A DNA stretch of 64,000 bases, from IMG/VR virus record IMGVR_UViG_3300005264_000009, positions 23,210-87,209 of that record; one strand, 5' to 3'. The DNA comes from a virus. Within the stretch, counting starts at the first letter, position 1; each line of letters starts with the position of its first letter. Position numbers and translations under genes: made by a program. This document shows, in pieces, positions 1,784 to 30,317 of this stretch. Under the pieces are notes generated by a model. The model did not search any database. It was given only the letters and a program-made list of their open reading frames with translations, and was not told the DNA's origin.

Positions 1784-2782
1784 ATGAAAGATGATGTTGC
1801 TCCAAAAGATATTATTGAAAAATCTGATTTATCTACTATACCTTTAGATTTACTTGATGAATTATTAGACCCAACCTATGCAGAGGGGCTATTCAAGTAT
1901 TACAAAGAATCATGGCGTAAAGGATTTCCTATTTCTGTTTTATATTCAGCTTTAAGAAGACACTTAAATCAATTTTTCTTTGAAAGAGAAGACTTTGATA
2001 AAGAAACTTTTGAAAAGTATGGTATTCAAAAAACACACTTAGGGGCTATTATTTTTTGCTGTATTAGTATGTATAATTCTTTAAAATTAAACAAAGGTTT
2101 TGATGATAGACCTTATATAAAAAAGAAAAAAGAAAATAAACACAATATAAAAAAGAAAAAAGGTAATAAACCCAATATAAAAAAGGAAGAAATAGTTAAA
2201 GAAAAGTATAACAAAATATTTGATTATGATTTAGAGTTACAAAGTGATCTTGATGATTTTCTTAAAGATGATTTATTACCACAAGATGATATGAATGATT
2301 TTCTTAAAAATGATTTATTACCACAAGATGATATTGATGATTTTCTTAAAAATGAGATATTACCACAAGATGATATTGATGATTTTCTTAAAAATGATAA
2401 AAAAGAAGAAAAAAAATTCAAGTATGAAAAAGAATTAATAGATTTTATTAATCAACAAGTTAGAGATAATAAGTTACATGATGTTTTACTTACACAAGAC
2501 GAAGTTACAAAAATGTTTGACTTACCTGATAAGGGTAAAAAACATGATTATGTTTGTAAATATATACCAAAAAACAATGCTGATATTAAGGAAAAATGTT
2601 TGTCTTGCAAATCATTTGATGAAGAATATTTTATGGCATGTATGAATAGTTTAAAATGTGATAATTACTCTTTATATGAAGAATCACATTGTTCTACTTG
2701 TAAAAAACAATATAGTACTTTTGTAAATTTTAAAGAAATAGTGTGTAAACATTGTTCGATCAACCCTAAAAATAGAATATAA
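1784..2782 (+). CDS. dATP/dGTP diphosphohydrolase-like (DUF5664) N-terminal domain plus repeat-containing C-terminal extension
   Basis: K.DL..IP ... G..KY...SWRKG ... SAL.RHL ... HL motif series typical of DUF5664. Confidence 0.7.
   Translation: MKDDVAPKDIIEKSDLSTIPLDLLDELLDPTYAEGLFKYYKESWRKGFPISVLYSALRRHLNQFFFEREDFDKETFEKYGIQKTHLGAIIFCCISMYNSLKLNKGFDDRPYIKKKKENKHNIKKKKGNKPNIKKEEIVKEKYNKIFDYDLELQSDLDDFLKDDLLPQDDMNDFLKNDLLPQDDIDDFLKNEILPQDDIDDFLKNDKKEEKKFKYEKELIDFINQQVRDNKLHDVLLTQDEVTKMFDLPDKGKKHDYVCKYIPKNNADIKEKCLSCKSFDEEYFMACMNSLKCDNYSLYEESHCSTCKKQYSTFVNFKEIVCKHCSINPKNRI
2253..2397 (+). repeat. 42-nt coding tandem repeat, about 3.5 copies (DDFLKNDLLPQDDI)
   Basis: GATTTTCTTAAA.ATGA..TATTACCACAAGATGAT repeated. 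Confidence 0.9.
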
Positions 2783-9878: not shown

Positions 9879-10472
9879 ATGGATAGACAAGTAATTATAC
9901 ATCAACATATATTACAAACGCATTTACCAGATGCTTGTAAATTATTAATGGGAAAAATAACTGAATTTGTTGACTGTAATATTGTTAATATAAATAAAAA
10001 AGAAATAACTGATTTTTTTAATTGGAATATTCATAAAGTAAATAAGTGTTTACAAAAGTTAGAAAAAGAAAATATAATTGAAATTATAGATAATAAAACA
10101 ATAAAATTATTTTATTATCATCGATATTTACCAGAATTTCAATTTTTACATTTAGATGATGTAAGCGTATTACGTAAAATATATAATGATTTAGAAGATG
10201 ATGACAATATATACACAAATTTGTATTGTGGTAATGTAATAACAAAAAGTTTACTTGCTTTAAATTTAAATGATGCTTGTACTCTTTTAATGAGTGAACT
10301 TCTATTAAATGAATGGGTAAGGGATAAAAAGAAAAAAACAATAAAAATATCAAAAATATCAATTAAAAAAACTTTATATTGGAGTATTAAAAAAATTGAT
10401 AGAATATTAACAAGATTAAGAAAAGAAAAAATACTAAAGTACAAAAAAGGAGCACATATACTATTATTTTAA
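9879..10472 (+). CDS. putative DNA-binding protein with duplicated winged-HTH-like halves
   Basis: Internal duplication (L.DAC.LL...W...K....L..L.KE); paralog of next ORF. Confidence 0.6.
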   Translation: MDRQVIIHQHILQTHLPDACKLLMGKITEFVDCNIVNINKKEITDFFNWNIHKVNKCLQKLEKENIIEIIDNKTIKLFYYHRYLPEFQFLHLDDVSVLRKIYNDLEDDDNIYTNLYCGNVITKSLLALNLNDACTLLMSELLLNEWVRDKKKKTIKISKISIKKTLYWSIKKIDRILTRLRKEKILKYKKGAHILLF

Positions 10473-10485
10473 AAGGAGAATAAAA

Positions 10486-11157
10486 ATGGAAAACCCTAAG
10501 ATGCTTACATTATATTCACAACTGTTAGAAACAAGTATGCCTGATAGTTGTAAATTATTAATGGGAAAACTTACTGAATCTATATGTGAAAAGAAACTCC
10601 AATTAGGTTTGACTGGAAATAACTATTGTGTAGTAGAAATCAATAGACAGGAATTAGCTGATTTTTTTAAATGGCATATTAAAAAAATACACATAGGTTT
10701 AAAAAGATTAGAGAAAGAAAATATAGTACAAATTATAGATAATAGAAAAATAAAAGTATTTAATTACCATATATACATGGATATTTTTCAGTTAAAAAAT
10801 CAAGATGGTATTGAGGGATTAAAAAAGTTTTTTAATGATTTAAATGATGATACTTCCATGTATTTGTATTTAGGTGAGGATAATATACAAATACCGTATA
10901 GTGTTGCATCTTCAAAATTAGATGATGCTTGTAAAGTTTTATTGGCTGAACTTTCTGCATACCAATTACTTAAAAACGATGATCCCGAAGATACTTATGT
11001 TGTTAATATTCACCAGAAACATACAATAGGTTTTTTAAATTGGACTTTTAAAAAGTTGAATAAGAAATTGGTTTTATTAGAAAAAGAGGGATTTATAAAA
11101 CGTGTAGATGATAACTATTACGAAATTTTAGAGCCTGTTGATTTAGAATTAGTATAA
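10486..11157 (+). CDS. putative DNA-binding protein, paralog of 9879..10472
   Basis: PDSCKLLMGK, DFF.W.I.K, LEKENI..IIDN shared. Confidence 0.6.
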   Translation: MENPKMLTLYSQLLETSMPDSCKLLMGKLTESICEKKLQLGLTGNNYCVVEINRQELADFFKWHIKKIHIGLKRLEKENIVQIIDNRKIKVFNYHIYMDIFQLKNQDGIEGLKKFFNDLNDDTSMYLYLGEDNIQIPYSVASSKLDDACKVLLAELSAYQLLKNDDPEDTYVVNIHQKHTIGFLNWTFKKLNKKLVLLEKEGFIKRVDDNYYEILEPVDLELV

Positions 11158-11174
11158 ACTTTTTTAAAAAGTTC

Positions 11175-11203
11175 TTGACAAACAAACTTTGTTGTGATAG
11201 TGT
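11175..11203 (+). promoter_or_regulatory. sigma70-type promoter
   Basis: TTGACA-17nt-TAGTGT with TG extension. Confidence 0.7.
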
Positions 11204-11219
11204 GCCTTTTAAGACTTCA

Positions 11220-11282
11220 AAGTGGGGAACGGATTAGCTATCTGTTGTGTAAGTTCTTGTCCTCTTGCACTATTCCCCACTT
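11220..11282 (+). ncRNA. C4/CI-like three-way-junction antisense RNA
   Basis: Stems AAGTGGGGAA/TTCCCCACTT, CGGAT/ATCTG and GTGTAAG/CTTGCAC; loop TTCTTGTCCT is the exact reverse complement of AGGACAAGAA at 11315-11324. Confidence 0.7.
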
Positions 11283-11325
11283 CCTTTTTCTCATGGACAT
11301 AGCAGATTAAGATTAGGACAAGAAA

Positions 11326-11487
11326 ATGAAAAGTGTTACATTCTATACAAAAAATCACATTTTAAAAATTAAAATTAAAAATAATCACTTAGGATACATT
11401 TATCTTGAATCTTATGAGAGAGATATAATGTATAATGAAAACATTTGTAAAGATTTACTATTACATTTAAAACAAGGAGGGAACTAA
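11326..11487 (+). CDS. 53 aa leader ORF whose RBS is the predicted antisense target (not in ORF track)
   Basis: AGGA RBS; open frame MKSVTFYTK...KQGGN*, abuts next ORF. Confidence 0.55.
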   Translation: MKSVTFYTKNHILKIKIKNNHLGYIYLESYERDIMYNENICKDLLLHLKQGGN

Positions 11488-11489
11488 AA

Positions 11490-11765
11490 GTGAAGCAAAA
11501 TTCTTCAATGGGTATTTCAAGGCAAAATTATCATCAAATATTACAGAATGATAAAAAAGATAGTAGTACACTTTTTTTATACTTTTTCTTTTTAGATTGT
11601 GTACAAAAACAAAAAACAAAAACAATTAAAATAACAAGTGCACAATGCAAACGAGAATTAAAGTGGGGAGAAAAGAAATTTAAAAAAGCAAAAAATGTAC
11701 TATTAGAATTAAAAATAATAGAGCAAGTAAATAAAAAGCAAGTAAAAGTAAATAATAATAAATAG
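11490..11765 (+). CDS. putative HTH DNA-binding protein
   Basis: GGAGG RBS; ELKWGEKKFKKAKNVLLE helix-turn-helix-like. Confidence 0.55.
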   Translation: MKQNSSMGISRQNYHQILQNDKKDSSTLFLYFFFLDCVQKQKTKTIKITSAQCKRELKWGEKKFKKAKNVLLELKIIEQVNKKQVKVNNNK

Positions 11766-11776
11766 AGGAAATAAAA

Positions 11777-12100
11777 ATGAAAAACATAAAATATGGTGAT
11801 ATATTTAATAACCACAAAGGACTTTCGGGTTTAAATATACCTGATAATATTGCTGAATCAAATTTACATGATTCAAGTAAAATACTTTTAGGAAGATTGA
11901 TTGCATTCACAAATAAAAATGGGGAATGTTCTCCCACAAGAAAAACATTAATGAAAACATTATGTTGGAAAAAAACAAAATTAGATAGAAATATACAAAT
12001 ATTAAAGGAGAAAAAACTAATAAAAACAAAACAAAAGGATTATGGTTCACCAAGTAATTATTACTTTTTATGGCATCCTTTTTATGAAAAAAACAATTAG
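11777..12100 (+). CDS. HTH_36-like winged-helix protein
   Basis: SKILLG.L..F....G.C.P....L...L ... L.EK.LI ... SNYY. Confidence 0.7.
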   Translation: MKNIKYGDIFNNHKGLSGLNIPDNIAESNLHDSSKILLGRLIAFTNKNGECSPTRKTLMKTLCWKKTKLDRNIQILKEKKLIKTKQKDYGSPSNYYFLWHPFYEKNN

Positions 12101-12152
12101 AAATAACAAGGTTGAAAATATCATGTATTAATAAAAATAGGAGAAAATAAGT

Positions 12153-13850
12153 ATGGAGAATAACAACTATTACTTTACTATGCAACAAATCCCAACTATT
12201 GCATCTTGCAATCCATTATTATCACCATCGGATAAATTGGTTTTTTCCAGTATTTATTTTTTAAAAGAGTCAAAACATGGTTCTTGTTTTGCATCAAATA
12301 AGTATTTAGCTGAATATCATGGATTAAGTGAAATTGCTATTAAAAAATCAGTGCAAAAATTAGAACATTTAGGTTATATAAAAAGAAAAACAGAAAAAAA
12401 ATTAGTAAGAACAATACCTGGAAATTACCCTAATGAATATAGATCATATAGAATTATTAATATTTTAAAACAAAATTTATGGTTACTACTATCAGATGTT
12501 TGGAATATGGCTTATCCACAAAAAGATGAAGAAGCAAGACACTTTTGGTATATAATAACAAACATAATAAAAGATTACGAAAAAACAATCAAAAAAGACA
12601 AAAAAGTGTTCAAGATCGTTGAGGCTGTAAGTTTATCCATAGGGGGTATAAAAATTTATCTTCAAGAGGATAAAAATTTATCTTCAAGAGGATACAAAAT
12701 TATACCCTTATTAAAAGAATATATTAAAAGTAGTGAAGATCTAACTAAAGTTAGATCACACAACCTATCGGTTGTTGATAAAAAGGATGGTTATTTAATA
12801 CAAGAGGATAATTCTTGCAATATAAATGATTTTGGGGAAACAAATAAAAAAATAAACAATTCTTGTAATAAAGAAAATTTTTCGCCAGCAAATAAAAAAA
12901 TAAATAAATCTTCTTTAAATTCTTGTGATCGCAAAATAAATAAAAAAATAAAAACAAAGAGACCTAAATATAAAATAACTACATCTACATATTCTTGTTA
13001 TACTCAATTTATTAATGCTGGTGCAACAAAACATAAAGAAGATTCAAAAGCATTTATAATAACAATGGAAAATATACATTCTTTATTTGATAATAAATGT
13101 CTTCCTCCATATAGAGATGCTTTTGTTCCCGAAAAATTCATAGATTATAAATGGAGTAAAGATGAAGTTATAGATACATTTGTGTATCAATTAAAAAACG
13201 CAAAATCAGAAGGTTTTGCATTAATTAAATCTGCTGGGGCATTTATTTTTCAAAAAGGTTTTAATGGCAAAAAAGCTTGGAGTCCTCTTTTATTCTGGAA
13301 TCAAAAGATGAATAAGACAGAAAAAGACGTTTTAACGCCCGAAAGTGTCGTTTTTAGAGACTTACTGAATAAAAACAATATAAACCACACAGAATTACTC
13401 CCAAGCGATTTAAACAGGCTTTCTGGTAGTTTAGAAAAAGCTAAAAAATATTATACATTTTTTAGTGCCTCAATGAAAATACAGCATAAAACATTTGCAC
13501 ACCACTTTGTAAACGTTTATTTACCAAAACAATTTAACAATAAGCAATTCAGGCTTGTTTATATTAGAAAAAAAGGTTTTATCCAACAATACATGAAAGA
13601 ATGTGCTTATGCTAAAGTATATACAAAGATAAAAATAAATTATGAAACTTTTAAAGGCAAGAAAATAACAAGAAAGGAGTATCTACAAATACCTGTTGAA
13701 GAAAGAAGAAAAGAAATAGATAAAGAATTAGAAGGGAAGACAGAATATTATCAAGGTAAGTATATACCAGCTATAGAATACCATAAAATACCATTTGATG
13801 ACAGATTACATGATATAGAATTAACAAAAATGAGACGTAGAAACAGGTAA
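12153..13850 (+). CDS. replication initiator-like protein (N-terminal wHTH)
   Basis: CFASNKYLAE..GLS...IKKS.QKLEHLGYI; located just upstream of helicase; internal iteron-like repeats. Confidence 0.7.
   Translation: MENNNYYFTMQQIPTIASCNPLLSPSDKLVFSSIYFLKESKHGSCFASNKYLAEYHGLSEIAIKKSVQKLEHLGYIKRKTEKKLVRTIPGNYPNEYRSYRIINILKQNLWLLLSDVWNMAYPQKDEEARHFWYIITNIIKDYEKTIKKDKKVFKIVEAVSLSIGGIKIYLQEDKNLSSRGYKIIPLLKEYIKSSEDLTKVRSHNLSVVDKKDGYLIQEDNSCNINDFGETNKKINNSCNKENFSPANKKINKSSLNSCDRKINKKIKTKRPKYKITTSTYSCYTQFINAGATKHKEDSKAFIITMENIHSLFDNKCLPPYRDAFVPEKFIDYKWSKDEVIDTFVYQLKNAKSEGFALIKSAGAFIFQKGFNGKKAWSPLLFWNQKMNKTEKDVLTPESVVFRDLLNKNNINHTELLPSDLNRLSGSLEKAKKYYTFFSASMKIQHKTFAHHFVNVYLPKQFNNKQFRLVYIRKKGFIQQYMKECAYAKVYTKIKINYETFKGKKITRKEYLQIPVEERRKEIDKELEGKTEYYQGKYIPAIEYHKIPFDDRLHDIELTKMRRRNR
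12643..12955. repeat. putative replication origin: 22-bp iterons followed by A-rich repeats
   Basis: ATAAAAATTTATCTTCAAGAGG x2 plus a partial third copy; then 3x AATTCTTG and 3x AAATAAAAAAATAAA. Confidence 0.55.
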
Positions 13851-13892: not shown

Positions 13893-16592
13893 ATGGAAAT
13901 AATTAAAGTTAATATTACAGAAGAAAAAAGAATAACACTTGGTTTTATATTAAGTAATAGGTTTCATAGAAATGTACATGACTTCTTTGAATTAGATTAT
14001 ATTACAAATGTTTATTTAAAACAAATAAGTTCTCTTTGTATTGAATTTTTTAATGAATTTCAAGATGCACCGAAAAAAGCTATAAAAGATATTTTTTTTG
14101 ATTATAGCAAAAATTTAGAAAGTGCAGAAAAAGAAAACATGAAAAATATTTTGCGTGAATTATACACACAAATTTCTGATGGTATTAATGTTGATTATTA
14201 TATTCAAGTAGCAAAAGAATATTGTCAAAAACGATTTGTACAAATCCACATAAACAATATGCAGTTGTTAGATGAAAAAGAGGATTATGAACAGGCTGAA
14301 CAGTTAATATTACAATATAACACATTTGCTGATAAAATGAGTGAGGGTGTCATCCTTGATATGGATGATGATGATGTTTATGAAAGATTATTTGATAAAT
14401 TAGTAAATGAAGATTCTAACTTTTTTAAATTTCCAGGTGCGGTTGGTAAATATTTAGGTAATATGAAAAGAGGTGATGTTGTAGGTTACGTAGCACCTCA
14501 AAAACGTGGGAAATGCGTATCTGAAAATTCATTGATAACATTATCAGATGGTACATTAAAAACTATAAAAGAAGTAGTACAAAAAAAGATAGTAAATGTT
14601 TTATGTAAAAATGAAAAAGATAAAATTGTAAAAGGGAAAGTTATTGATTGGATGTATTGTGGGGAAAAAACAGAATACGAGGTTACAACAAAATCAGGTA
14701 GAAAAACAAAAGTAGCAATAGATCATAAATTTTATACACCAATGGGGTATAAGAAATTGCAAGATTTACAAGTGGGGGATAGAGTTGGCTTGTGCAAACA
14801 TAAACCTTGTTATTCTCATAAAATAGTAAAAAAATCAGAATTACGCATTTTAGCCTATTTACTTGCTGATGGTCATTTAGGCGAAGGTATGAGTTTCACA
14901 AAACATTCACCTAATGTAATGGCTGATTTTTGTAAAAATTTACATGAAACAGATAAATACACAATATTTGATAATGGTTGTATTTTAAGATTACATAGAA
15001 CACAAACATACAGATTTATACAAAAATTAGGTTTGCAATATAAATTATCGGCTGATAAATTTATTCCTGATTTTGTTTTAAAAAGTAATAATAAAAGTAT
15101 ATCCGAATTTTTAAATGTTTTATTTACTTGTGATGGTTCTATTTGGAAAGATCGAAATTGTGTACAAATTGATTATAGTACAAAAAGTTTTATGCTTTGT
15201 AATCAAGTAGTATCTTGTTTGTCAAGATTCAATATATTTGGAAAAATACGTGAAAGGATAGTTAATAACACAAAATATTATGAAATTGTATTGTCAAGCA
15301 ATAAATCTATTATTGCTTTTATGAAACATATTGGTTTTTCTTTTCATAAAGCAGAAAAAGCAAAGAAATTAACATTTGAATTGGTAGATAAACGTGATTA
15401 CATAGATGTAATACCACATGAGTATGTTCTAAAATATGGGAAGGAATTACGTGAATCTGGAAAAGGATTTAATAATGAGTCATTTAGAATAGCTTTTAAT
15501 ACTGGAAAACATGTATCAAAAAAAGCATTTAAAAGAACTGTTGGAGATCAACCTGTATTACACACTGATCTATTATGGGATTCAATAAAAAGTATAAAAA
15601 AGTTAGGTAAAGTTAAAATGTACGATTTAGAAGTTGCAGAACACCATAACTTTATTTCCGATTCTTTTATTGTACATAATAGTTTCTGGTTGATAGAACA
15701 CTTAGCACAAGCCGTAGCACAAAAGAGAAAAACAGTATTTTGGTCTGTAGAAATGACAGAGGTAGAAATTTTTATGCGTGTATTAAAAGCATTTTATCCT
15801 ATGATAAATATGGATGAAGCAAGAGAGTTTTCAGACAACCATGAATATCCCTTTCCTGAATTGGATTGTAAGTTAAATCAAAATGGTGATTGTAATAATA
15901 GAGAATCAACAGTTATTGTTTTGGATGGGGATGATATGCCTATGTTTGATAAAAAACATGTACCTTGTAAAAAATGTAAGGGTACAGATAAATACAAATA
16001 TACTTTATATACATCTTATATGAAAAGACCTATACTTGAAAAGTTTGAGGGTTATAAAATAAAAGAAAAATTTAAGCGTTTATTTAAAAAGTATATAAAA
16101 ATAAGTGTACATCCTAAATATTCATTATCATATCAAAACATGATTTCTGATTTAAGTAAATTAGCAAGAACAAAGAATTTTGTTCCTGATAAACTTATAA
16201 TAGATTATATTGATATTTTAAAAATAGATTCATCATTTGATGATTATAGATTAGTAGATGAACAATGGAAATTATTAGCACAATTAGCTGGTGAAACAAA
16301 AACATTAGTTGTAACAGCAACACAAGCAAATAAAGCAGGGTTAGACTCAACAAGATTAAACAGTTCACATCAAGGGGGTTTTTATGGTAAAAGTAGGCAT
16401 GTAAATTTAATGGTGGGTATAAACCAAACAGCAGAACAAAAAGAACAAGGAATAATAGAATTAGGAATTACAGATAGACGTGAGGGTTTCTTTTCTGAAA
16501 ATGAATCATGTTTAGTTTTACAAGATTTAAAAACAGGACAAGCCCACTTAGAAGGATTAATTGTATATAACACAAAGGGGAAATATATATGA
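13893..16592 (+). CDS. dnaB: DnaB-like replicative helicase with intein
   Basis: Walker A APQKRGK|S split by intein; SVEM, IIDYID, TATQAN. Confidence 0.9.
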   Translation: MEIIKVNITEEKRITLGFILSNRFHRNVHDFFELDYITNVYLKQISSLCIEFFNEFQDAPKKAIKDIFFDYSKNLESAEKENMKNILRELYTQISDGINVDYYIQVAKEYCQKRFVQIHINNMQLLDEKEDYEQAEQLILQYNTFADKMSEGVILDMDDDDVYERLFDKLVNEDSNFFKFPGAVGKYLGNMKRGDVVGYVAPQKRGKCVSENSLITLSDGTLKTIKEVVQKKIVNVLCKNEKDKIVKGKVIDWMYCGEKTEYEVTTKSGRKTKVAIDHKFYTPMGYKKLQDLQVGDRVGLCKHKPCYSHKIVKKSELRILAYLLADGHLGEGMSFTKHSPNVMADFCKNLHETDKYTIFDNGCILRLHRTQTYRFIQKLGLQYKLSADKFIPDFVLKSNNKSISEFLNVLFTCDGSIWKDRNCVQIDYSTKSFMLCNQVVSCLSRFNIFGKIRERIVNNTKYYEIVLSSNKSIIAFMKHIGFSFHKAEKAKKLTFELVDKRDYIDVIPHEYVLKYGKELRESGKGFNNESFRIAFNTGKHVSKKAFKRTVGDQPVLHTDLLWDSIKSIKKLGKVKMYDLEVAEHHNFISDSFIVHNSFWLIEHLAQAVAQKRKTVFWSVEMTEVEIFMRVLKAFYPMINMDEAREFSDNHEYPFPELDCKLNQNGDCNNRESTVIVLDGDDMPMFDKKHVPCKKCKGTDKYKYTLYTSYMKRPILEKFEGYKIKEKFKRLFKKYIKISVHPKYSLSYQNMISDLSKLARTKNFVPDKLIIDYIDILKIDSSFDDYRLVDEQWKLLAQLAGETKTLVVTATQANKAGLDSTRLNSSHQGGFYGKSRHVNLMVGINQTAEQKEQGIIELGITDRREGFFSENESCLVLQDLKTGQAHLEGLIVYNTKGKYI
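14514..15680 (+). mobile_element. intein with LAGLIDADG homing endonuclease (389 aa)
   Basis: Starts CVSENS, ends FIVHN before S; LAYLLADG and LFTCDGS blocks. Confidence 0.92.
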
Positions 16593-21885: not shown

Positions 21886-21974
21886 GTTTGGATTATATTT
21901 AGTTGTTGTTTTGTGGCTTCTTTTTAAGTGACTAAATTTATAAATAAACGTAGAAAAATAATAGGAGAATAATT

Positions 21975-24635
21975 ATGGATTTATTCAATACAGCGGAATT
22001 AAACGATGCAAAAATAAAGGTAAACCCTAATCATTTACAGCCAAATTGTAAAAAATGTGATTTAAATAAAGCACCTAAAATAGAAGTTTCAGGAGAGGGT
22101 AAAAAAGAAATTCTTGTTATAGGAGAATCAACATTAAATGAGGAAATGACTTATGGAAGTGCTTTTGTTGATGATACAGGATTTCTTTTAAATAAAATAC
22201 TAAGAAAACAAAACATATCTTTAAATAAAGATTGTTGGAAAATAAATGCTGTTAAATGTTATTCACATATAAAAACCAATCATAAACAAATAAATTGTTG
22301 CCGACCAGCATTAGAAAAACTTATATATAAATTAAAACCCAAAACAATATTATTATGTGGAGATGTGGCTGTAACATCATTATTTGGAGAAGATTTTTCT
22401 AATAGAAGTATTTTTCGTTGGAGAATGTATTGTATTCCTGATGAAAAATATAAGTGTAATATTATACCCATTTTACACCCACGTTATGTTTTAGATAATG
22501 ATAAAGATAGTGGTATGTATCGACAATACGAAAGAGATGTTACAAAAGCATGTTATTTAATGAAAAGACCTTTTCTTAAAAACAAAAAGTATGAATCTTA
22601 CGTTACTGTTGTTACTGACTTTACTAAATTAAAACGTATTTTAACTAAAGTAATAAAAAACAAAACAAAAATAGCTTATGATTATGAAACTACAGGTTTA
22701 AAACCATATAGAAATAGACAAAAAATAGTAACAATAGCATTTGCCGTAAGTATGACAAAAGCATTTGCTTTTCCATTTGATTATAAAACTTTTTGGACAG
22801 AAAAAGAACGTAATGAAATTTACACATTATGGCAAACAATTTTAAGAGATGATAAAATAAATAAAATAGCTTATAACGAAAAATTTGAAAAAATCTGGTC
22901 AATGGAAATTTTCAAAGCAAAACCCAAATGTTTTTTTGATCCTATGATAGTTTTGCACATTTTAGACAACCGTAGTGGCATATTAGGATTGAAATTCCAA
23001 ACATTTGTAAATTATGGTGTAAGACCATATGATAAACATATTCAAAAATACTTAAAGGCAAAAAAAGCAAGTGATTATAACAGTGTTGAGGAAGCCCCCT
23101 TTAACGACTTATTGATTTATAATGGCTTGGATTGTATCTTTACATATATGTTATATGACGAATTAATGGGTAAATTAGGAAAAAACAGTGAATTATTAAG
23201 TGCTTATAATTTCTTTATTCGTGGGTTAGATATTATGGCTATTATGCAACATAATGGAATACCTGCAAGTGCTGATTATTATGAACAAACAGATGTTTAC
23301 TTGCACGAAAAAATACAAAAATTAGAAACAGAATTAATGACAGGTAGAGAAGCCACAAAATTTAAAGAAAAGTATAAAAGAGATATTAAAATCAAGTCAA
23401 ATCAAGACTTAGGTAAGCTGTTTTACGAGGTTTTGGGTAAGCCAGCTATAAAGACTTCTAAAGGTAATTACAAGACAGATAAACCTACCTTAGAGACACT
23501 TAAACTACCCTTTGTAGATAAACTCTTAGATATTAAAAAATACGAAAAAGCAAAGGGTACTTACTTGGGGCAATTTAAACGAGAGATTGTAAGTAATAAA
23601 ATACATCCCTTTTTTAATTTACACTTACCTGTTTCATACAGATCAAGTGCAAGTAGTCCTTCATTTCAAAATATACCAAAAAGAGATCCTGAAATATCTA
23701 ATTTAGTTAGAAAAGGTTTATTTGCACCTAAAAATTGTGTTATTTCAGAAACGGATTTTTCTGGAAGTGAAATTATTGGTTCTGCAAGTTGTCATCGTGA
23801 TCCTAATTTTATTCATTATTTACAAAACCCTGAAACAGACATGCATAGAGATATTGCCGAAGATATTTGGCAATTACCAAAAGACATGTTAAACGATCCT
23901 AATTATAATAAGGAACAGAAAAAGAAAGCAAAAATGATAAGATTTTTTGCTAAAAATAATTGGACTTTTGCTCAATTTTATGGAGACTGGTTTCTACCTT
24001 GTGGTACAAATTTGTGGGAAAATGTTATTAATGGTAATTTAGAACTACCAACAGGTCAATCAGTACTTGATTACACAAATGAAAAAGGTATTTACGAGCT
24101 TGGAGAGATAATACAAGGTGTTGTAACACCTGGAAGTTTTCTTGACCATCTGAAAAAAGTTGAAAAGAAAATGTGGTATGATAGATTTCCACAATATACA
24201 CAATGGAAAAATGACATATACGAGCAATATCAAGATTATGGTTATATTGAAAACCACTTTGGATTTAGATTTACGGGTTATATGTCAAAAAATCAATGCT
24301 GTAATTATCCCATACAATCTGTTTCATTTCATCTTTTACTTGATTCTTTAATTGTATTATATAAGAGTTTACGTAAACACAAAATGAAAACAAAATTAAT
24401 AGGACAGATACATGATTCTTGCTTGGCTATTGTACCAGAAAATGAAATTGTAACATACCATACTATTGTACATGATATTATTGCTAATTTACATAATAAA
24501 TTTAAGTGGATGGTTGTTCCAATGGATTCAGAAATAGAAATATCTAAATTAGGTAAAAATGGTGGGAACTTTACTGAAATGAGTGAAATTTCTATAACAG
24601 ATATTCAAGAAGGTAAATATAAAGCAATTATATAA
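21975..24635 (+). CDS. family A DNA polymerase with N-terminal family-4 UDG-like domain and 3'-5' exonuclease (SPO1-type architecture)
   Basis: CKKC/VIGE/NAVKC/LHP UDG-like region; DYETTG exoI, YNGLD exoIII; FQNIP, DFSGSE motif A, R..AK...FYG motif B, IHDS motif C. Confidence 0.93.
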   Translation: MDLFNTAELNDAKIKVNPNHLQPNCKKCDLNKAPKIEVSGEGKKEILVIGESTLNEEMTYGSAFVDDTGFLLNKILRKQNISLNKDCWKINAVKCYSHIKTNHKQINCCRPALEKLIYKLKPKTILLCGDVAVTSLFGEDFSNRSIFRWRMYCIPDEKYKCNIIPILHPRYVLDNDKDSGMYRQYERDVTKACYLMKRPFLKNKKYESYVTVVTDFTKLKRILTKVIKNKTKIAYDYETTGLKPYRNRQKIVTIAFAVSMTKAFAFPFDYKTFWTEKERNEIYTLWQTILRDDKINKIAYNEKFEKIWSMEIFKAKPKCFFDPMIVLHILDNRSGILGLKFQTFVNYGVRPYDKHIQKYLKAKKASDYNSVEEAPFNDLLIYNGLDCIFTYMLYDELMGKLGKNSELLSAYNFFIRGLDIMAIMQHNGIPASADYYEQTDVYLHEKIQKLETELMTGREATKFKEKYKRDIKIKSNQDLGKLFYEVLGKPAIKTSKGNYKTDKPTLETLKLPFVDKLLDIKKYEKAKGTYLGQFKREIVSNKIHPFFNLHLPVSYRSSASSPSFQNIPKRDPEISNLVRKGLFAPKNCVISETDFSGSEIIGSASCHRDPNFIHYLQNPETDMHRDIAEDIWQLPKDMLNDPNYNKEQKKKAKMIRFFAKNNWTFAQFYGDWFLPCGTNLWENVINGNLELPTGQSVLDYTNEKGIYELGEIIQGVVTPGSFLDHLKKVEKKMWYDRFPQYTQWKNDIYEQYQDYGYIENHFGFRFTGYMSKNQCCNYPIQSVSFHLLLDSLIVLYKSLRKHKMKTKLIGQIHDSCLAIVPENEIVTYHTIVHDIIANLHNKFKWMVVPMDSEIEISKLGKNGGNFTEMSEISITDIQEGKYKAII

Positions 24636-28004: not shown

Positions 28005-30317
28005 ATGTCATTACAACATGATTACAGACCAAAATCTTTTAAAACTTTTGTTGGTAATAAAAGTACTATTGAATCAATCCAAAGTGTAATTAAAAAGAAC
28101 CCACCAAGAGCTTTTTTAATTACTGGAAATTCGGGATGCGGCAAATGTGTATCAGATGATACTTATATTTTTTCAGAATTAGGTATGAAAACAATAAAGT
28201 CATTTGCACCTAATGCTCCTTTAGGTTTTTCTGATTTACAAATAAGTGTGGCTTCTAAAAATGAAATAGATACCACATCACATTTTTATAAAGAAGAAAA
28301 TTGTGAAACTAAAAAAATTGTAACAGAATATGGGTATGGTGTTACAGGAACATATAAACACCCTGTGCTTGTTTATGATGTTGATAAAGCAGAACATGTG
28401 TATAAACATTTAAAAGATGTAAAAACAACAGATTATACATGTATAAACAGAGATATTAATTTATTTTCAAAAAGTAATTCTCCTTTATACTTTTCTTATG
28501 TGAAAGATAAAATGGATGGGAATGGACACACATTCAGATCACCTTGTGAAGTTAATTGTGCTTTATCAGCTATATTAGGGTATTTAATAGCTAATGGATC
28601 ACAAAACAAAAACAAAAACAAATCGAGTGGTTTTTTATTTTCATCAAATTCAAGTAAAATACAAGCTGATTTTGTAAATAAATGTGATGAATTACACGTA
28701 GATGGTTGTACAACATCTGTAAGTAATAGTAATAGTAATATATGTGGTGTATGTAGAGTAAGTAACACTCAATTTGCTACATTTATAAATACACTATTTA
28801 AAACAGGATTCCAAACAGCAAGGTATAAAGTAGTTCCTAATTGTATTTTAGAATCAAAGAAAGAAATGCAAAGAATATTTTTAAGAACACTTTTTGATTG
28901 TGATTCTTACTTTAGTGGTATGGTTTTTGAATATTATACTGCATCCGAAGTACTTGCTAAACAAGTTCATTTAATATTATTAAATTTTGGTATAGTTTCT
29001 AAATTAAAACCAAAAACAGATGTTAAAATCAAAACAAAAGTCTATGATCATACTTATTGGACTGTGGCTGTTGGGTCACAAAATTTGGATTTTTTATGGA
29101 AAACTATTTTATTTGATAGTTTAAAATATGACAAATTAAAAAAAGTAATAAGAAATCCTAATAACGACATTATACCAAATTTAGGTTTGTACATTAAAAC
29201 TTATATTTCAAAATATTTAAAAGTGAATAAAAGTGGTAAATTTAAAATAGGTGGTAAATATTTTTCTAATAAATTATTTGTTGGTGCAAATATATATGAT
29301 GGTATGACATTTGAAAGATTGGAAAAATTAATAGATAATTTTTCTAAAATGCCTGAATTAAAAGAATTATCTATTTTAAAACAACAATTAAGTGACATAT
29401 ACACAAATCATTACTATTATGATAAAATAAAAACTATATCAGAGGATAAAAAACAAACAGTGTATGATTTTACAATACCTAAAACACACTCATTTATTGG
29501 TGGTGGGATTGTGAATCATAATTCAACTTTGTCATATATTATTGCCAAAGCATTAGGTTGTTCCAAAATGGATTTTGTTAAAAAAGATGCATCATCTGAT
29601 AGAACGATTGCAGGCATAAAAAAATTAAAAGAAGATTGCCAATTTTTACCAATGGTGGGCAAAAAGAAAGTTTTTCTTTTAGAAGAGTTTAATAATGTAC
29701 CAAAAATATCACAACAGGCATTATTAGATACTTTAGAAAATCCACCAAAACATGTACACTTTATAATTTGTACAACCAACCCTGAAAACTTATTAGATAC
29801 AGTAGTACGTAGATGCCATAATTATAAATTACTACCATTAAAAGATGCACAAGTAAGAAAAAACATTCTATTACGTACAATTAAAAAAGAAAAAGTAACA
29901 ACCGTTCCTGATACCGTATTAGATAAAATTATTGACTTATCTGATGGATCACCAGGAATTGCTTTAAAGTACTTAGATCTTGTAATAGACCAAACAGATG
30001 AAAAAAAAGCTATAAGTGTTTTACAAAGTGCAGGTGCAGATAATACAGAGATAATTGAAATTTGCAGAGTTCTTTGTCAATTTCAAATGAGTGCTAAAAA
30101 CCGATGGTATAAATTAAAGAATTTATTGAAAAAGTTTGATGGTGATCCTGAAAGTTCAAGAAGAGCTGTATTAGGTTATTTAACCAAAGTTATACTTAAT
30201 TCAGATGAGGAAGATGTTGTTTTTATGGCAGAAAAATTTGAAAAGAATTTTTTTGATTCAGGAAAAAATGGTTTTATTATAGCTTGTAAAAAAGCTGTCA
30301 TGGAGATAAGTGAATGA
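28005..30317 (+). CDS. dnaX: DnaX/RFC-like clamp loader ATPase with intein
   Basis: YRPKSF..FVGN, GNSGCGK|S, LLEE, LENPP, ICTT, RRC. Confidence 0.88.
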   Translation: MSLQHDYRPKSFKTFVGNKSTIESIQSVIKKNPPRAFLITGNSGCGKCVSDDTYIFSELGMKTIKSFAPNAPLGFSDLQISVASKNEIDTTSHFYKEENCETKKIVTEYGYGVTGTYKHPVLVYDVDKAEHVYKHLKDVKTTDYTCINRDINLFSKSNSPLYFSYVKDKMDGNGHTFRSPCEVNCALSAILGYLIANGSQNKNKNKSSGFLFSSNSSKIQADFVNKCDELHVDGCTTSVSNSNSNICGVCRVSNTQFATFINTLFKTGFQTARYKVVPNCILESKKEMQRIFLRTLFDCDSYFSGMVFEYYTASEVLAKQVHLILLNFGIVSKLKPKTDVKIKTKVYDHTYWTVAVGSQNLDFLWKTILFDSLKYDKLKKVIRNPNNDIIPNLGLYIKTYISKYLKVNKSGKFKIGGKYFSNKLFVGANIYDGMTFERLEKLIDNFSKMPELKELSILKQQLSDIYTNHYYYDKIKTISEDKKQTVYDFTIPKTHSFIGGGIVNHNSTLSYIIAKALGCSKMDFVKKDASSDRTIAGIKKLKEDCQFLPMVGKKKVFLLEEFNNVPKISQQALLDTLENPPKHVHFIICTTNPENLLDTVVRRCHNYKLLPLKDAQVRKNILLRTIKKEKVTTVPDTVLDKIIDLSDGSPGIALKYLDLVIDQTDEKKAISVLQSAGADNTEIIEICRVLCQFQMSAKNRWYKLKNLLKKFDGDPESSRRAVLGYLTKVILNSDEEDVVFMAEKFEKNFFDSGKNGFIIACKKAVMEISE
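28146..29522 (+). mobile_element. intein with LAGLIDADG-type endonuclease (459 aa)
   Basis: Starts CVSDDT, ends IVNHN before S; LGYLIANG and LFDCDS blocks. Confidence 0.92.

Follow-up and report, generated by a model that had tools for sequence, protein, structure and literature searches.

A candidate leader-encoded antisense RNA facing the first ribosome-binding site of a replication operon in an uncultured marine phage

The stretch analysed here, called the window, is a 64-kb part of the IMG/VR virus record IMGVR_UViG_3300005264_000009, which spans 87 kb and is rated 63% complete. It carries, between a promoter and the first small gene of a replication operon, a compact structured element referred to as element A. 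With confidence evenly balanced for and against, element A is read as a leader-encoded antisense RNA, transcribed from the same strand as its target, that would occlude the first ribosome-binding site (RBS) of this operon, working like the C4 and CI RNAs while standing outside those families. Same-strand leader-encoded antisense RNAs are a feature of a few temperate enterobacterial elements (P1/P7, P4 and also N15), where their role is in immunity. The reading draws on the fold of A, on the exact complementarity of one of its loops, on the position of the Shine-Dalgarno (SD) sequence within the complementary stretch, on a paralogue in which loop and targets have changed together, and on the gene content of the operon.

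Minimum free energy (MFE) and centroid predictions give the identical Y shape for a 131-nt and a 73-nt stretch: a closing stem, P1, with a GGGG/CCCC core, and two hairpins that meet it in a three-way junction (Table 1). The 73-nt element has a z-score of -4.68, none of 200 dinucleotide shuffles being equally stable, and the loop of hairpin 2 has a mean unpaired probability of 1.0 in the folded leader. This loop, TTCTTGTCCT, is the exact reverse complement (10/10) of AGGACAAGAA, which includes the SD sequence (AGGA) of a 53-aa open reading frame (ORF), ORF53, and stops 1 nt short of its ATG. The pairing is exactly co-extensive with the loop, since the neighbouring letters are unable to pair, and the perfect 10-mer is found in two places in the window, the loop and the target. 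When 20000 random placements in the genome were examined, a complement of at least 10 nt within 110 nt downstream was met in 0.4% of them and one of at least 7 nt in about 10%, a background that lies above naive arithmetic because the DNA is AT-rich and rich in local repeats. The initial annotation had described the promoter, the three-way junction, both hairpins, the loop match and the unannotated ORF, and all of them read from the sequence as it gave them, with the predicted structure reproduced by folding and the codon usage of the ORF gene-like. It had also proposed that GCTAT of hairpin 1 could pair with ATAGC (11299-11303); these letters are present, but the match of 4-5 nt is at chance level and has no counterpart in the two further elements described below, B and C.

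The paralogue, element B, lies outside the window in the same record. Its promoter is TTGACT-17-TAGAGT, its P1 (AAAGTGATTGGAG/CTTCAATCACTTT) begins approximately at the predicted +1, its hairpin 1 is CAGTTT-TGC-AAACTG, and its hairpin-2 loop region, TTCCCTGA, is unlike that of A. This loop matches TCAGGGAA twice, 7 and 23 nt past B's own P1, within a 15-nt direct repeat that is followed by AGAGGGAG and then by the ATG of a 73-aa ORF, which has no similarity to ORF53; by random placement, a match of at least 8 nt has a chance of 0.014. The motif TTGA[CT]-N17-19-TAGnGT, searched on both strands, occurs at two sites in the 87-kb record, at A and at B. A covariance model built on A alone and run with filters off over 68 kb matched A, B (23.3 bits, E 0.0011) and the reverse strand of A; B was missed under default filters and detected with filters off alone, and a model of A and B together returned no third copy in the entire record. 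When A and B are aligned, every one of the 22 pairs is standard in each sequence, and 12 have both partners changed, among them 6 of the 10 pairs of P1 and 5 of the 7 pairs of the hairpin-2 stem. Judged from the aligned sequences, promoter and Y-RNA are a duplicated module whose helices have been kept by compensatory change and whose loop and downstream sites have changed together. The complementarity between loop 2 and the SD region in A is therefore unlikely to be due to chance, since the paralogue appears to keep the fold while loop and targets change in step. Co-variation of loop and RBS in homologues, which the initial annotation had raised, is thus seen between the paralogues and not between orthologues. 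Across the genome no further convincing target of the A or the B loop was found, which fits a private regulator of each one's own operon. In a stretch poor in ORFs just 3' of the 73-aa ORF, G000 22346-22437 (L042 3347-3438) also folds strongly into a Y-like shape, which is closed by a 15-bp stem.

The lineage is thinly sampled. A PolA query reached seven IMG/VR contigs or loci at 51-59% identity, and in two of them, G002 and G003, homologues of the 565-aa initiator-like protein of the operon occur at 31-32% identity. That protein had no match except itself in a search of 5.8 billion proteins, and a single-sequence query of IMG/VR returned no homologue; an alignment of the three initiators found G002, G003, one weak N-terminal match and nothing else in IMG/VR, and nothing but the source contig of G003 in the metagenome collection, and the proteins adjoining C and B gave nothing new as queries. 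A structure-descriptor scan of both strands of six records yielded 60 compact Y-shaped candidates, 18 of which have a loop complement of at least 6 nt no more than 110 nt downstream. Stability is highest in C, A and B among these 18; most of the 15 weaker ones fall within coding sequence or are separated from their match by about 100 nt. The same type of scan drew attention to a cloverleaf resembling a tRNA gene in another related phage (L037 of G001, 1825-1896, minus strand).

Element C is a Y-shaped leader in G003, 5' of a 204-aa gene; its place in a divergent promoter region rules out that it terminates a gene further upstream. Its P1 (TGTGGGAA/TTCCCACA) is followed by a U-rich tract, its hairpin 1 has a longer stem than that of A and the same loop letters, TAGCT, and its hairpin-2 loop, GAACTCGTCAT, matches ATGACGA 7 nt past P1 as well as GACGAG overlapping the SD. 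The loop:target duplexes have calculated energies of -13.4 kcal/mol in A, -11.5 in B and -7.6/-9.6 in C. Aligned with MAFFT, A, B and C did not give a consistent structure. Because C is recovered by neither the A-only nor the A+B covariance model, and because its 7-nt match alone has a chance of 0.08, it is ranked as sharing the architecture of A and B and not as a proven homologue.

At the position that corresponds to A, ahead of the initiator operon, G002 and G003 have promoters (TTGACA-17-TAATAT and TTGATT-17-TATGGT, respectively) and promoter-proximal, strongly folded leaders with z-scores of -4.4 and -6.4. The 5' arm of these leaders, AAAGACUYCUUU..GUGG, pairs with AAAGGAGUUUUU, so that the upstream GACUYCUUU faces the SD-like AAAGGAG; in G002 AAAGGAGUUUUU makes up the genuine SD and spacer ahead of the first gene, and in G003 a second SD comes after it. 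The two hairpins differ from each other by compensatory changes and each ends in a U run, with which the TTTTTCT of A aligns; the A leader also has the letters AAGACUUC..AAAGUGG in common with them. RBS occlusion would thus recur at this operon head with different folds, as the G002 and G003 leaders pair with an SD-like sequence, and the head of the initiator operon appears in all three phages to be a structured, RBS-pairing, U-tailed leader, of which the Y of A would be one variant. Between the U tract and the target of A there is a five-codon mini-ORF without SD (ATG..TAA, window 11293-11310); in the alignment with the G002 leader its ATG falls on the first gene's start codon.

It could be argued that A is a structural leader alone, that is, a 5' stabiliser and/or a terminator or attenuator, in which the match of loop and SD is fortuitous. 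This is judged unlikely, since the 10/10 pairing, which has a chance of 0.004, ends at the loop borders, and B keeps the fold with another loop and another, duplicated target, which weakens the idea, as does the location of the 15 weaker candidates of the scan. It draws some strength from the tendency of pyrimidine-rich loops to fit purine-rich SD regions, from the fact that 4 of the 10 matched letters in A are the SD/anti-SD core, and from an AT-rich genome in which local inverted repeats are so common that complements of at least 7 nt occur at the rate given above. P1 of B also begins where 5' stabilisers typically do, and U-rich tracts stand behind A and C, that of A in line with the U runs of G002 and G003, as would suit a terminator.

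A different proposal is that the repeats act as DNA operators, 8-10-bp inverted and direct repeats (TTCTTGTCCT/AGGACAAGAA in A, TTCCCTGA and the two copies of TCAGGGAA in B) that would be bound by the neighbouring tandem winged helix-turn-helix (wHTH) paralogues, for promoter control or as an origin mark. The region is part of a replication module, five wHTH/initiator-like genes lie at 9879-13850, and the sites of B are set within an iteron-like direct repeat of 15 nt. Yet a DNA model gives no reason why A, B and C should each have one copy in the apical loop of hairpin 2, it would require a separate protein for each element, and in A the half-sites are 51 nt apart and downstream of the promoter; the compensatory helix changes, moreover, point to selection on RNA, and operators of this kind are considered improbable.

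It has likewise been considered whether the loop forms a pseudoknot in cis that activates or times translation, as in the IncI1/IncB plasmids, for which there is a small chance. Such a pseudoknot is conceivable for B, where both sites, like the first site of C, lie 5' of the SD instead of covering it, and these plasmids offer a precedent in replication-initiator genes with a leader peptide (PMC8053102). It is unlikely for A, in which the paired stretch holds the SD, ends 1 nt before the ATG and should block the ribosome; the two equal sites per loop in B would be superfluous for a single pseudoknot, and no opposite-strand antisense gene turned up, no search having been aimed at one.

Several observations weigh against the reading of A as an RBS-occluding antisense RNA. 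The full 131-nt leader is unremarkable in stability (z -0.65, with 47 of 200 shuffles equally stable). A consensus promoter scan did not call the promoter of A, because its -10 element fits the consensus at 3 of 6 positions, and a terminator scan did not call the U-tract site, being confined to simple hairpins with loops of 3-8 nt; P1 and the CCUUUUUCUC that follows it may be an intrinsic terminator. A and B were initially selected for complementarity, so that the chances of 0.004 and 0.014 are not independent tests, and the 22 pairs were compared in an alignment fitted to the covariance-model structure. The family members supported by the model number two, A and B, and B has no U tract and both its 8-nt sites upstream of the SD rather than on it. 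The closed 10-nt loop of A is unable to make all ten pairs without strain, so the actual contact would be shorter. Contigs from four DNA runs were examined, and those spanning A equal the window sequence with no differences, leaving no informative variants for co-variation of loop and target inside one lineage. To the two facts that lower the rank of C may be added that the best match of the A+B model in G003 is elsewhere (E 0.089). The syntenic leaders of G002 and G003, finally, are plain long nested hairpins and not Y shapes.

For an antisense RNA that occludes the RBS, we infer from the letters alone how transcription, termination, pairing in the cell, action in cis or in trans and the effect on the downstream genes would proceed. 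Transcription from the TTGACA/TAGTGT promoter would make the compact Y-shaped RNA first, and a fraction of the transcripts probably ends at the U tract past P1, giving an RNA of about 75-80 nt, while the remaining ones would continue through ORF53 to the genes for the wHTH/initiator proteins and the helicase. On this read-through mRNA, AGGACAAGAA would then be bound by the 10 open loop letters of hairpin 2, either in trans, by way of the short RNA, or in cis, through a pseudoknot between loop and leader. With its SD covered, ORF53 would stay untranslated, and the genes after it would be reduced through translational coupling, polarity or decay. The trans route would need a short RNA freed at the U tract, which is present in A and C and absent from B; the two equal sites per loop in B and C mildly favour more than one RNA per mRNA, and thus action in trans. 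As regulator and target come from one promoter, repression is expected to rise with genome dosage, and the element could serve as a pulse, or as a delayed or copy-number brake, on initiator synthesis as the phage genome accumulates.

The genes that would be subject to this control are arranged on the same strand as A with small gaps between them: ORF53, ORF91, ORF107, the 565-aa protein and the helicase. ORF53 looks like a coding sequence by its codon score: read in frame it reaches 0.20, where windows in true genes have their 5th percentile at 0.19, and the two alternative frames score -0.61 and -1.03. Neither Pfam nor PHROG gave it a match, and the related records contain no relative. ORF91 starts with GTG 3 nt past the stop of ORF53, and its SD (GGAGGG) is inside ORF53. 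The initiator gene of G002 carries a fused homologue of ORF107 (40% identity). Profile matches bear out the initiator and helicase genes named in the initial annotation, as wHTH initiator-like proteins and a DnaB-type helicase, and a second DnaB-like gene comes after the intein-bearing one. On the 5' side of A the window encodes DNA methyltransferases and a pair of wHTH paralogues (9879-10472 and 10486-11157, 36% identity), which with ORF91, ORF107 and the 565-aa protein make up the five tandem wHTH/DnaD/initiator-like genes. Inteins with a LAGLIDADG domain are found in the DnaB-type helicase and in a clamp-loader gene (DNA_pol3_delta2, 28005-30317), and at 21975-24635 the window encodes a family A DNA polymerase with an N-terminal domain of the uracil-DNA-glycosylase superfamily.

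Table 1. Location of element A, its parts and target, the downstream genes, and the elements compared with it (window positions unless a record is named).
Feature	Location	Strand	Description	Basis
Promoter	11175-11203	+	sigma-70-type; TTGACA 11175-11180, 17-nt spacer, TAGTGT 11198-11203 preceded by TGa	sequence
Element A	11220-11282	+	Y-shaped three-way-junction RNA, 63 nt	MFE and centroid folds agree
P1, 5' strand	11220-11229	+	AAGTGGGGAA, partner 11273-11282	sequence, fold
Hairpin 1	11230-11244	+	CGGAT-TAGCT-ATCTG	sequence, fold
Hairpin 2	11247-11270	+	GTGTAAG-TTCTTGTCCT-CTTGCAC; 7-bp stem, 10-nt loop	sequence, fold
Recognition loop	11254-11263	+	TTCTTGTCCT of hairpin 2	sequence, fold
P1, 3' strand	11273-11282	+	TTCCCCACTT	sequence, fold
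U-rich tract	11283-11292	+	CCTTTTTCTC, directly 3' of P1; possible intrinsic terminator/attenuator	sequence
Target	11315-11324	+	AGGACAAGAA, including SD (AGGA) of ORF53	exact reverse complement of loop 11254-11263
ORF53	11326-11487	+	first cistron, 53 aa, ATG 11326	ORF translation
ORF91	11490-11765	+	weak wHTH/DnaD-like match (phrog_186, E 0.0015)	profile match
ORF107	11777-12100	+	HTH_36, replication-initiator-like	profile match
565-aa protein	12153-13850	+	replication initiator-like	profile match
Helicase	13893-16592	+	DnaB-type, split by intein	profile match
Element B	G000 21927-22080 (L042 2928-3081), 1.1 kb before window start		promoter and Y-RNA	sequence and covariance model
Element C	G003 14021-14090 (region L038 13980-14145)		Y-shaped leader	structure scan
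Syntenic leader hairpin, G002	L032 7214-7430			fold
Syntenic leader hairpin, G003	L033 8352-8110	-		fold

Near-identical DNA is present in marine-sediment and hydrothermal-vent metagenomes from several studies, and contigs that match window positions 10900-12100 exactly come from runs of both kinds, from several studies and years. A search with blastn against 50,697 phage records gave no match, and ARAGORN detected neither a tRNA nor a tRNA-like gene in the window. The 87-kb record, 63% complete as it is, contains no integrase or resolvase, so that nothing points to an immunity or dormancy role and the switch for superinfection immunity or dormancy suggested in the initial annotation is unsupported. 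Relatives of A were also sought in IMG/VR DNA with the pattern AGTGGGGAA-N35-50-TTCCCCACT, which gave 21 loci in about eight groups, approximately the chance number by a hand estimate. They were rejected as relatives: the five that were folded are long hairpins and not Y shapes, and the covariance model hit the loci through the typed stem alone. One group, from sample 3300045988 (L002-L005, L009, L013, L014, L017, L019 and L021), belongs to unrelated, G+C-richer phages and has a 63-nt hairpin with the same 9-bp closing-stem letters and a U run, whose apical UCCUUUC stands opposite the GAAAGGA SD of the next gene; one variant weakens this match with no compensating change, and the group is probably convergent or due to chance.

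If a family unrelated in sequence does the same job as the enterobacterial RNAs where a replication operon begins, and does so in an uncultured sediment and vent phage without sign of lysogeny, this logic would prove to be a general means, arrived at by phages more than once, of metering the expression of early or replication genes. A and B, with different loop and target addresses in one genome, would then form a natural specificity-swap pair and an easy subject for reporters. A bolder extension, offered as a tentative and rather doubtful one, is that in a large virulent marine phage the duplicated cassette of promoter and Y-RNA is a programmable, operon-private antisense address, acting as a brake proportional to copy number on the A and B operons; each cassette would yield by attenuation, from the promoter of the target operon itself, a short single-loop RNA for that leader. 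If this holds, it would amount to plasmid-style copy-number control in a lytic phage, by an RNA family without catalogued relatives.

No family of Rfam 15 was matched by A, B or C in cmscan at E<=10, including the C4 antisense RNA of P1/P7 (RF01695). PMC5320573 describes C4 as an RNA of about 77 nt, cut by RNase P from a longer transcript, with three stem-loops (the closing stem P1, P2 and P3), of which loop b' covers the RBS and loop a' adds specificity. It belongs to the c4-icd-ant operon, according to PMC8198154, and lies on the same strand as and upstream of its own targets, with its loop on the RBS of the first small ORF, icd, and its specificity set by a few changed loop letters (PMC5320573, PMC8198154). 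A and B likewise consist of a closing stem P1 and two hairpins; A has the order promoter, RNA, target and first small ORF on one strand, and its loop complement covers the RBS of that ORF, which it would occlude. The likeness is partial for the other two, as the second site of C overlaps the SD and the 8-nt sites of B are upstream of it. Unlike C4, which uses two loops, A has one loop with a credible target; the genes downstream of it are wHTH/initiator and DnaB genes and not icd and ant, no sign of a temperate life-style is found in its 63%-complete record, and it comes from the AT-rich DNA of marine-sediment and vent metagenomes. A is not a member of the C4 family: the model gives no match, a second loop contact is not found and the immunity context is missing. 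The C4/CI analogy drawn in the initial annotation is thus apt in the shared strand, the position upstream of the targets and the small first ORF, but does not extend to a match with the C4 family.

The CI RNA of P4, as described in PMC4825925, is processed from the untranslated leader of its own operon, which contains replication genes, and has one antisense segment for two sites, seqA and seqC, the outcome being premature termination. The contrast that A controls replication genes rather than an antirepressor is therefore not new, since P4 CI already does so (PMC4825925). The position of A and its gene content would suit a leader from which, as in P4, a discrete RNA may be made, and B and C resemble CI in their two sites per loop. 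A differs in that seqA is upstream and seqC downstream of CI, whereas the sites of A (one), B (two) and C (two) are all downstream; in that the site of A is an SD, while the outcome in P4 is premature termination in the lysogen, with no sign of lysogeny here; and in that no sequence kinship is seen, a match to any Rfam family being absent.

Plasmid initiator control offers a third comparison. In R1 CopA/tap/repA and in IncI1/IncB Inc RNA/repY/repZ (PMC8053102), the initiator gene is gated by the translation of a short ORF in the leader, the leader is contacted beside the RBS by an RNA loop, gene dosage is sensed, and in IncI1/IncB a loop-to-leader pseudoknot beside the RBS is needed for initiator translation. 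The antisense RNA comes there from the opposite strand, whereas the regulator in A is on the same strand and within the leader, and the pseudoknot of IncI1 is activating, whereas the duplex of A would bury the SD. Nearer at hand, A shares with the SD-sequestering hairpins of G002 and G003 its position between the upstream module and the initiator operon, its closeness to the promoter, its U tail and the 5' letters AAGACUYC...GUGG of its leader, although those hairpins are nested and long, without an apical loop complementary to a downstream site. Placed among these systems, the Y-RNAs would form an uncatalogued family of at least two paralogues, to which a related phage adds one look-alike; the family probably acts in the manner of C4 and CI.

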